Under the pieces are notes generated by a model. That model was not told the DNA's origin, made no database searches, and was given only the letters and a program-made list of their open reading frames with translations. The translations under genes and the position numbers were made by a program. This document shows positions 944 through 5,192 of a stretch of 5,192 nt of DNA, piece after piece. The DNA is from a virus (lineage: Duplodnaviria; Heunggongvirae; Uroviricota; Caudoviricetes), in IMG/VR virus record IMGVR_UViG_2778261277_000011. One strand, 5' to 3'. Position 1 is the stretch's first letter, and every line of letters begins with the position of its first letter.

Positions 944-969
944 TGGACACTATCGTTGCTTATGTTTAT

Positions 970-994
970 AAAAAAAGCCCTGCTTACGCAGGGC
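970..994 (-). terminator. Intrinsic terminator for minus-strand transcripts, downstream of the 76-aa cargo ORF
   Basis: Perfect 7-bp stem GCCCTGC (977..983) / GCAGGGC (988..994) with 4-nt loop, followed on the minus strand by a T7 run (plus-strand A-run 970..976). Confidence 0.6.
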
Positions 995-1022
995 ATAAAA
1001 ACTCAATATTGATACTATGAAT

Positions 1023-1253
1023 CTATTCCAAATCCCAACGTGGAATATTTATTATCTTACCAGGAGTTAAGGAAAATTTGGCTTTCTTCAATATCTCAAC
1101 ATTAGCATCATCAGGAATCACTAAGAAGTACGAATAGTGCATTTCTCCAGAATTCCCATGATTCTCCTGAATATCATCTTCGCTAACTCCCGACGCTTCA
1201 AGCTCATCAACTGTGAGTCCTAAATAATCAGCTAGCTTTTGTATATCAATCAT
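1023..1253 (-). CDS. Hypothetical small acidic protein (76 aa) in AT-rich cargo island; function unknown
   Basis: ATG at 1253..1251 with GAGGTG 4 nt upstream (strong SD); ORF MIDIQKLADYLGLTVDELEASGVSEDD...; about 15 D/E residues; low GC compared with flanking phage genes; followed by an intrinsic terminator. Confidence 0.5.
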   Translation of the reverse strand: MIDIQKLADYLGLTVDELEASGVSEDDIQENHGNSGEMHYSYFLVIPDDANVEILKKAKFSLTPGKIINIPRWDLE

Positions 1254-1552
1254 TAATCACCTCACATATCAACGATGAGGCATCATCATCACACACTCTA
1301 GCAAAAGCTTCAACTTATTGTTATTATTAAAATAATTCTATACAAATTACATCTAATGTATATCCTATGATACGACAGGTGCGAATATTAATGACAAACA
1401 ACCATCGTATTTCTCTGAAAAATGGCAAGTATCACTCATTATTCCCCATGCATCTATGTACTCTGTTCATGGTCAAGCCATAACTATATTTAATGCAAGA
1501 ATACGGAAAGTTAAACAAATAAACGTTGATACACTAACATTCCACAAACTAG

Positions 1553-1846
1553 TTATACTAATGAAGTAGGCAATTCTTCCTCTGAAATTCCCAATACTCT
1601 CATATCGGCCCGCAATTCTGCTATAGCGCACACTTCACTATAAGATGGTGCGGACTTCTCAGGATAAAGTACATACTCAAAATGCGGCGGAGGATTAAAT
1701 ATTAAAACCGAATACCCAGCTTCTTGAAGGATATTTTGGACGATTGAATAATAAGGTCTACGCTCATCAAACCAATAACATCCATTCCTTTCTATTGACG
1801 CGATTGCTTTTTTTGCGTGCTTCTTATAAACCCATGCCTTATCCAT
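1553..1846 (-). CDS. Hypothetical protein (97 aa) in AT-rich cargo island; function unknown
   Basis: ATG-initiated ORF MDKAWVYKKHAKKAIASIERNGCYWFDERRPYY...; no recognisable motif; weak SD (AGGA only 1 nt from the ATG); low-GC context; perfect minus-strand TATAAT (plus 1974..1979) and paired TACGTA palindromes lie upstream. Confidence 0.45.
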   Translation of the reverse strand: MDKAWVYKKHAKKAIASIERNGCYWFDERRPYYSIVQNILQEAGYSVLIFNPPPHFEYVLYPEKSAPSYSEVCAIAELRADMRVLGISEEELPTSLV

Positions 1847-1994: not shown

Positions 1995-2285
1995 TCAATT
2001 CAGTAACTTTTCAGAGCCTGTGGCCAGTCTTTGGACACGCTGTTGTTGGACAATAGCTCGAATATGAGACTTGTCCGTATTACATTGCCCTAATGCAGAT
2101 AACAAGCTCGCATTTAAGTTGAGACTTGCACCATACGTCAGAGGGTCTGGTATGAGCGGTATAGGTGTTTCAGAAATCAAACTAGTTGGTAGTGGTGTAA
2201 CCGGAGTGCTCACGTAAACTGTCCGCGTACTTCCGCAACCGGTCAGCAGCGGCAGCAGGCACAGCACGTGAAGCGCAATCATCAT
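1995..2285 (-). CDS. Rz1: Rz1-type o-spanin (outer-membrane lipoprotein), overlapping the 3' end of Rz in another frame
   Basis: Start at the internal Met pair (2285..2283 / 2282..2280) of track ORF 1995..2453: MMIALHVLCLLPLLTGC with lipobox LTGC, then a proline-rich mature domain (TPVTPLPTSLISETPIPLIPDP); begins inside Rz and extends past the Rz stop. Confidence 0.7.
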   Translation of the reverse strand: MMIALHVLCLLPLLTGCGSTRTVYVSTPVTPLPTSLISETPIPLIPDPLTYGASLNLNASLLSALGQCNTDKSHIRAIVQQQRVQRLATGSEKLLN

Positions 2286-4834: not shown

Positions 4835-4953
4835 GTCTTTTTTCCTTCTGGTTAACATGACATACCAATAACTCTTGTCTAAAAAGCCAGCAAGATAAAA
4901 AGTCAGTATTCACGATCACCAGCGTGTTTACCGTACTGCCAACATCAAGGCAC

Positions 4954-4976
4954 AAAAAAACCCGCTCAGCGGCGGG
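4954..4976 (-). terminator. Intrinsic terminator on the minus strand (candidate tR'-like late-leader terminator)
   Basis: GC-rich hairpin CCCGC-N6-GCGGG (4961..4976) followed on the minus strand by a T7 run (plus-strand A-run 4954..4960); lies about 50 nt downstream of the candidate late promoter. Confidence 0.65.
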
Positions 4977-5024
4977 TTCTTAAATCTTATCAACGGTAGA
5001 CATACAAAGCCCATCGTTGGAAAA

Positions 5025-5084: not shown

Positions 5085-5192
5085 TTATCTCGTCACTTTT
5101 CTTAATTGCGCCTCAGCATATGCTTCTTCCTGCCAGCACTTTGTAACCAGTTTATCAATGACATCTGCATATCCTTTGTACCACTGATAATC
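5085..5192 (-). CDS. Q: Late antiterminator Q-like protein, C-terminal 35 codons (5' end outside window)
   Basis: Minus-strand frame open from the window edge to TAA at 5087..5085: ...DYQWYKGYADVIDKLVTKCWQEEAYAEAQLRKVTR. Resembles the lambda Q C-terminus as recalled (...YDALVVQCHKEES...AVTR). A second frame is also open for 29 codons, so frame choice rests on that similarity. Confidence 0.55.
   Translation of the reverse strand, partial: DYQWYKGYADVIDKLVTKCWQEEAYAEAQLRKVTR

Follow-up and report, generated by a model that had tools for sequence, protein, structure and literature searches.

The locus studied here raises a simple question: what fills the long gap between two small, neighboring cargo genes in the late region of a lambdoid prophage? 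The window (the whole stretch of DNA analyzed, 5,192 nt) covers the late region of an HK97-like lambdoid E. coli prophage in which every gene lies on the minus strand. In an essentially identical copy annotated in RefSeq (E. coli 0-4, NZ_CP076262.1, with the island at 2989.7-2991.1 kb), the gene order is P27-family terminase small subunit, HNH endonuclease, two hypothetical proteins, Rz1/Rz, lysozyme, holin and DNA methyltransferase; the two hypotheticals are the 76-aa and 97-aa cargo ORFs that flank the spacer (Table 1). A preliminary description of this DNA had singled out the spacer as unusually long, ORF-free and of very low GC content, and had proposed that it holds the promoter of the 76-aa ORF, a small RNA or a decayed gene. 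We consider it likely that the spacer is two things side by side, an ordinary moron control region and the junction DNA between two separately acquired cargo units.

The gap itself is real, and no other intergenic gap in the window is as long, the rest measuring 3-149 nt. Its length is unusual in that sense, but not for its position in the genome, where gaps of 150-350 nt are usual in related prophages. Its GC content had been put at 22-28%; the overall value is higher (Table 1), and single 60-nt lines range from 21.7 to 40%. Minus-strand ORFs longer than about 24 codons, said to be lacking, do occur within the gap, one of 33 aa (1327..1428) and one of 28 aa (1432..1518), both with TTG starts, and a 52-aa ORF with a GTG start (1473..1631) runs out of it. 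The longest stop-free run in the spacer is 65 codons, a length reached by 14% of shuffled sequences, and the ORF-free state of the spacer is not beyond chance for DNA of such composition.

Table 1. Positions of the spacer, its parts and the neighboring features in the window (strand given where one applies)
Feature	Position	Strand	Remarks
Spacer	1254..1552		299 nt, 32.4% GC; composite, two parts with different histories
76-aa ORF (cargo gene, phrog_31861)	1023..1253	-	Flanks spacer; function unknown per PHROG
97-aa ORF	1553..1846	-	Flanks spacer
Moron B cassette (upstream region, 76-aa gene, terminator)	968..1352	-	385 nt; ~80% identity with L004-L007, L012 and L013
Predicted intrinsic terminator GCCCTGC-GTAA-GCAGGGC (GCCCTGCGTAAGCAGGGC) plus T7	968..994	-	From terminator scan; would end the cassette
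Conserved putative 5' regulatory region (promoter and leader)	1254..1352	-	Proximal third of spacer; 75 of 99 columns invariant in five versions
Shine-Dalgarno sequence of 76-aa gene, GAGGTGAT	1256..1263	-	Strong, just before ATG; GAGGTGA invariant in all versions
CCTCA anti-Shine-Dalgarno motif	1276..1280	-	Conserved; 5' arm of predicted hairpin pairing with ribosome-binding site
Candidate P2 extended -10, TGT-GATGAT	1285..1293	-	17 nt from -35 in all versions
Candidate P2 -35, TTGAAG	1308..1313	-	TTGATG or TTGATA in homologs
Nearly invariant AT-rich core, ATGTAATTTGTATAGAATTATTTTAATAATAACAATAAGTTGA	1310..1352	-	43 nt; candidate UP-like or regulator-binding element upstream of -35
Alternative promoter P1, TATACA-16-TAGAAT	1335..1362	-	Sole minus-strand match of promoter scan
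Distal part, AT-rich junction DNA	1353..1552		200 nt, 34% GC; island-specific, only in copies of the same island
Plus-strand small ORF	1367..1483	+	38 aa (ATG 1367) or 30 aa (ATG 1391); not considered a gene

The two cargo genes and the spacer occupy an AT-rich cargo hotspot of 1.1 kb (~946-2060) that has the Rz/Rz1 lysis genes on one side and the HNH/terminase genes on the other; its GC content is 35.4%, against 50.2% in the rest of the window. The KW21, D3, EC11 and T2 prophages are homologous to the window up to the HNH start codon (943-945) and again from 2059-2078 onward, within the 3' end of Rz1. The content between these breakpoints differs from relative to relative: D3 carries one minus-strand gene, KW21 one plus-strand gene, T2 two plus-strand genes, and the counterpart in E. 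coli EC11 is a segment of ~290 nt without an annotated gene. This last segment (locus L034, 2008-2299, between Rz1 and HNH) consists of unrelated DNA with 39% GC, in which AAGGAGG followed by ATG may mark an unannotated small gene. At the other border of the hotspot, the break in backbone homology with related prophages falls inside Rz1 itself (lysC, 98 aa; window 1995-2078, minus strand), so that the last ~25 Rz1 codons are cargo-encoded and vary between prophages. The island in its present form is rare in the species: copies were found in 8 of 5426 complete E. coli genomes, along with three IMG/VR contigs and one metagenome contig, and all are 98.9-100% identical. Searches with spacer and island DNA returned only these eight copies from the complete E. 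coli genomes and no match from phages or plasmids, and tblastn searches of phages with both cargo proteins were likewise without a match. In one of the copies, that of E. coli PCP06173, an IS3-family element (L003 3966-5128, corresponding to about 1850-1900 of the window) separates the 97-aa gene from Rz1; truncated terminase and portal genes identify this prophage as a decaying copy.

Some observations on the surroundings of the island may be mentioned here. A 10-nt direct repeat, CAAACTAGTT (1545-1554 and 2178-2187), was considered as an insertion scar around the 97-aa unit and was rejected because the backbone homology extends beyond the Rz stop codon to ~2060-2078; one repeat of this kind is expected by chance per 1.25 kb. 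Direct reading of the sequence downstream of the Q antiterminator gene (3' end at 5085-5192 by RefSeq annotation) revealed a hairpin, AACCCGC-CGCTGA-GCGGGTT, followed by a T-run (4950-4990, minus strand). The terminator scan did not list it, but it is probably a tR'-type terminator of the late operon, and it accounts for weak Rfam matches to Leu/Trp leaders. The gap of 122 nt between the HNH and terminase small-subunit genes (471-592) is GC-rich; by comparison with HK97-like phages in general, a cos site would be expected here.

The comparison with other phages divides the spacer in two. Homologs of the 76-aa protein (76-80% identity) were traced to contigs and IMG/VR loci, and when the island was compared with these loci by blastn the match spanned island positions 19-403, which correspond to window positions 968-1352, with nothing beyond. 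The breakpoint at 1352/1353, seen by blastn and in the alignments, rests on two independent left-hand contexts. In L004, L007, L012 and L013 the cassette directly follows a DUF2514-type Rz gene and no 97-aa gene is present; its left flank in the window is unrelated to that in the homologous phages. Downstream of it, the relatives show at least three different arrangements, including lambda/phi80-type Nu1/GpA terminases or other packaging genes. From these alignments, the cassette appears to have been transferred between phages as a unit that takes in the proximal third of the spacer and stops short of the rest.

The gene at the center of the cassette is well supported. Its identity to the homologs is 89-90% at codon positions 1 and 2 as opposed to 66-67% at position 3, from which we conclude that the 76-aa ORF is a real coding gene. 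The AlphaFold2 model of the protein is confident (pLDDT 84) and has no fold match in the PDB or BFVD; the protein has no Pfam or PADLOC match, its sole PHROG match is to a family without a function, and a contig scan with protein patterns of the 76-aa family yielded no further copies. As to the predicted terminator that follows the gene, its stem is kept in L004, L007 and L013, while the loop differs.

Conservation in the proximal third of the spacer is patchy, with conserved motifs and variable stretches between them, and it goes along with the 76-aa gene in unrelated phage contexts. The comparison supports the view that this segment is the promoter region of the 76-aa gene. The suggestion of a promoter here was therefore a good one in substance, but not in place. 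The minus-strand hexamers named for it (TTGACC at 1475..1470, TTGCAT at 1498..1493 and TAATAT at 1390..1385) all exist, yet none has a partner at a distance of 16-18 nt, and promoter-like sites in the region number 2 in the promoter scan against 5.1 +/- 2.2 in shuffled sequences. The candidate promoter that we designate P2 is the only -35/-10 pair that recurs, column for column in the alignment, in each of the five versions. The 17 nt between its two hexamers are the most variable stretch, yet no version has an indel in it. Its -35 overlaps the conserved core, whose 3' end is TTGA and which, together with the next two bases, gives TTGAAG; the "CAT repeat" reported at 1281-1289 is indeed present and, read on the opposite strand, is the candidate -10. 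P2 matches 8 of 12 consensus positions in addition to the TG; this falls below the threshold of the promoter scan in the window itself, and in L007 the scan finds P2 outright. P1 is also a possible promoter: its -10 lies within the conserved core and its -35 in window-specific DNA, and scans of L004 and L013 gave no counterpart.

Between P2 and the start codon, the conserved CCTCA motif and the Shine-Dalgarno sequence are separated by a variable loop. Leader hairpins that mask the Shine-Dalgarno sequence are a general mechanism of translational control, and the leader of the 76-aa gene resembles them in that CCUCA, 16-20 nt upstream, can pair with the GAGG of the ribosome-binding site in the consensus fold, both arms being conserved. 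For three of four versions, the hairpin is predicted at -10 to -11 kcal/mol (z between -1.3 and -3.1). By partition function, the Shine-Dalgarno sequence is predicted to be unpaired at 0.10-0.17 for transcripts that start upstream of CCUCA and at 0.6-0.7 if transcription starts at ~1278-1275. Unlike established leaders of this kind, the hairpin is weak (-10 kcal/mol) and forms poorly in L007, and only a single double-sided change is seen, in the extension of its stem; nor is a ligand-, temperature- or coupling-dependent switch evident here.

The most conserved part of the upstream region is the AT-rich core, in which ATTATT-TT-AATAAT forms an inverted repeat. Identity between the core and its homologs is 93-98%, compared with 66% at codon position 3 of the gene (Fisher p ~2e-4). 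Members of the L004-type group show no such excess among themselves (91-93% identity in the core, 84-92% at third codon positions). Between the window and L007 the only difference in the core is a 1-nt indel (one inserted base), while the adjacent 56 nt are 70% identical. These data fit strong constraint with few tolerated sites, and they fit equally a recent recombination tract that ends at a module boundary. The core may thus have been kept as a sequence for cassette exchange and not for promoter function. We regard this as rather unlikely, although several observations would suit it: the core ends exactly at the homology breakpoint, its near-identity to L007 contrasts with the diverged DNA next to it, and the L004-type comparison shows no excess over third codon positions. 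Promoter-bearing boundary cassettes that mediate shuffling are, moreover, described for T4-type phages (PMC2839356). However, exchange by this route would require a second, illegitimate junction exactly at 1352; the core was not found beside any other gene, including in a contig scan with DNA patterns; and the motif-wise conservation of the extended -10, the Shine-Dalgarno sequence and the terminator stem in a diverged background argues for selection. Because the rest of the cassette is conserved motif by motif, and because recombination needs that second junction, the sequence evidence favors constraint on the core.

T4-type phages are reported to have mobile regulatory cassettes at module boundaries (PMC2839356), and the present case is similar in that a conserved intergenic sequence with a candidate promoter sits exactly at the junction of exchangeable modules. 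It differs from what is described there in phage group and promoter class, and in that the conserved block is seen with one gene only and is not repeated through the genome.

An UP element of a sigma-70 promoter follows an A/T-rich consensus and occupies -59 to -38, counted from the transcription start. A match to it in the core, AGAATTATTTTAATAAT (1339..1323), has two mismatches and sits ~4 nt farther upstream than its expected distance from the P2 -35, and the number of such sites in the window is not above chance. A site for IHF, TAACAATAAGTTG, was also considered in the core (one mismatch) and rejected, there being 4 matches in the window and 6 expected.

The distal part of the spacer has a different character. 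By blastn it has no match in E. coli genomes other than the island copies and none in phages or plasmids, and neither blastn nor tblastx found a match to it in any of the fetched loci, which include the neighborhoods of the homologs of both cargo genes. Neither a terminator nor a properly spaced promoter at threshold was found in it by the scans, and searches for tandem repeats and for tRNA or tmRNA gave nothing. Between the 97-aa gene and its closest homolog (60% identity), similarity is confined to the coding sequence; the flanks of the homolog are unrelated, and it has its own terminator directly after the stop codon. It follows that the distal DNA does not accompany the 97-aa gene as a conserved attachment. 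In the window no terminator follows the 97-aa gene, and for this reason the distal part is probably transcribed. We take it to be, probably, an untranslated 3' flank of the 97-aa gene or filler, apparently without a function of its own. Four SNPs lie within 19 nt (1361-1379) among the island copies, elsewhere 99-100% identical, just distal to the cassette boundary; this cluster could reflect a junction under relaxed constraint, a small conversion patch or the arm of a helix.

The proposal that the spacer is the scar of a gene, decayed or deleted between the cargo ORFs, deserves consideration. A length of 200-300 nt and the AT-richness would fit a degraded small gene, the SNP cluster and a 5-nt duplication at 1464 among the island copies show relaxed evolution, and homologs of the 97-aa gene are sometimes found in arrays of small genes. 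Yet tblastx against the neighbors of those homologs showed no residual similarity, the ORFs of at least 25 aa in the spacer have no Pfam, PHROG or PADLOC match, and the blastn searches described above were empty. With stop-free runs no longer than in shuffled sequences as well, the decay of a gene at this place seems quite unlikely to us.

A small regulatory RNA, made from the distal 200 nt or from the whole spacer, on either strand, was the other proposal; it could be antisense or derived from a 3'-UTR and could have phage or host targets. The probable transcription of the region from a 97-aa gene lacking a terminator speaks for such an RNA, as does a predicted long-range helix (1381-1369 with 1270-1258) that covers the ribosome-binding site of the 76-aa gene and in which two SNPs keep the pairing through G.U pairs. 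Two of two is not significant, however, and the distal arm of the helix is missing from the other versions of the cassette. Rfam 15 gave no match in the spacer when the whole window was searched, and on 1200-1620, with E up to 10, only C/D-box snoRNA noise (12-21 bits against thresholds of 36-50). The fold is no more stable than that of shuffled sequences on either strand (z +0.54 on the minus strand, -0.70 on the plus strand), no promoter is paired with a terminator, and the sequence is not conserved outside the island; the copies of the distal part are all at least 96.6% identical, too alike for constraint or covariation to be measured. Taken at face value, these results make a small RNA very unlikely.

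A related and more specific possibility is that the 43-nt block is an operator that switches the cassette, that the distal 200 nt yield an RNA masking the ribosome-binding site of the 76-aa gene, or both. If the first were true, the ATTATT-N2-AATAAT inverted repeat in 1310-1352 would be bound by a host or phage regulator; if the second, pairing of 1381-1369 with 1270-1258 by a 3'-UTR-derived or antisense RNA would couple the expression of the two cargo genes. We hold this to be a distant prospect.

On the plus strand, an ORF does run from 1391 to 1483 with AGGTG (1377-1381) nine nt upstream, as had been pointed out; on the coding strand this AGGTG reads CACCT. A protein of 30-38 aa translated from it, antisense to the cargo genes, is nevertheless extremely unlikely. 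Among island copies that are 99% identical, the 38-aa form acquires a stop codon through C1376T, AGGTG becomes AGATG through G1379A, and the duplication at 1464 frameshifts the last codons. The scan found no plus-strand promoter upstream, the product has no family match, and the open frame is within chance. A type I toxin-antitoxin-like ORF was also considered and rejected: the peptide MTNNHRISLKNGKYHSLFPMHLCTLFMVKP, on direct reading, has no membrane-spanning stretch, and the near-identical copies carry the stop, the loss of the Shine-Dalgarno sequence and the frameshift.

The neighbor on the other side of the spacer, the 97-aa ORF, is a genuine gene; its family, small and unannotated, comprises 12 representative clusters at 50% identity, all of ~93-106 aa. 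Its AlphaFold2 model (pLDDT 88.6) matches PDB 6tcb, the uncharacterized P. aeruginosa protein PA2723, in Foldseek (E 1.9e-5, TM 0.76/0.78, 94 aligned columns, 26% identity), so far as a model can tell giving the protein a PA2723-like fold and length; the profile match to the PA2723-like family is weak (E 0.19). A metagenome scan for the protein returned only the same island. Its homologs (loci L025, L029, L031 and L033 were examined) turn up in the corresponding Rz-terminase slot of a Proteus prophage, beside a KilA-N gene, and within same-strand arrays of small genes, one array being downstream of an X-Tfes_XVIPCD effector-type protein and another among RraB, UPF0167 and DUF7660 genes. By analogy, the layout of these arrays is suggestive of immunity-gene arrays, a resemblance that we offer as a lead.

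Morons are familiar from lambdoid phages, examples being the morons of HK97 and HK022 and the lambda genes bor and lom. By the published definition, a moron interrupts a region otherwise shared between phages, deviates in G+C content and is bounded by a sigma-70-like promoter and, at its other end, a factor-independent terminator (PMC3714127). The DNA described here likewise is extra AT-rich DNA that interrupts a syntenic late region. From its sequence, the 76-aa unit would lie between a candidate sigma-70-like promoter and a factor-independent terminator, and phages with different backbones carry it, in the orientation of the late operon; on interruption of the shared region, deviant G+C, predicted terminator and apparent cassette transfer alike, we class it as a moron. 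It is unlike the known morons in that the cargo (the phrog_31861 protein of 76 aa and the PA2723-like protein of 97 aa) has no known function, in that the 97-aa unit has no recognizable terminator, and in that the two units are direct neighbors, separated by 200 nt of filler.

We propose the following model, in which the spacer would be the seam between two AT-rich cargo units in the Rz-HNH hotspot. Positions 1254-1352 would be the control region of the 76-aa gene itself, travelling with the gene and its terminator. RNA polymerase would recognize a sigma-70 promoter made up of the -35 TTGAAG (1313..1308), 17 nt, and the extended -10 TGnGATGAT (1293..1285), its binding assisted or regulated by the AT-rich block at 1352-1314. 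Transcription would start near 1278, giving a leader of ~25 nt with the strong ribosome-binding site (1263..1256). In longer transcripts, including those from late-operon read-through, CCUCA (1280..1276) would pair with the ribosome-binding site and dampen translation, and the terminator at 994..968 would close the unit before HNH. Positions 1353-1552 would be non-coding junction DNA downstream of the 97-aa gene, transcribed at most as the 3' tail of that gene or by read-through.

The main value of these results lies in cleaning up the annotation, a suspicious gap becoming a standard moron promoter region plus filler. The limits of the cassette are now fixed at 968-1352, and a testable promoter and leader model is at hand for a cargo gene of the phrog_31861 family. 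Should the invariant block prove to be the site of a regulator, it would provide a handle on how cargo genes are switched in lysogens. A lead of perhaps greater interest is the PA2723-like family, whose members are encountered repeatedly, both in the cargo slots of prophages and in small-gene arrays.
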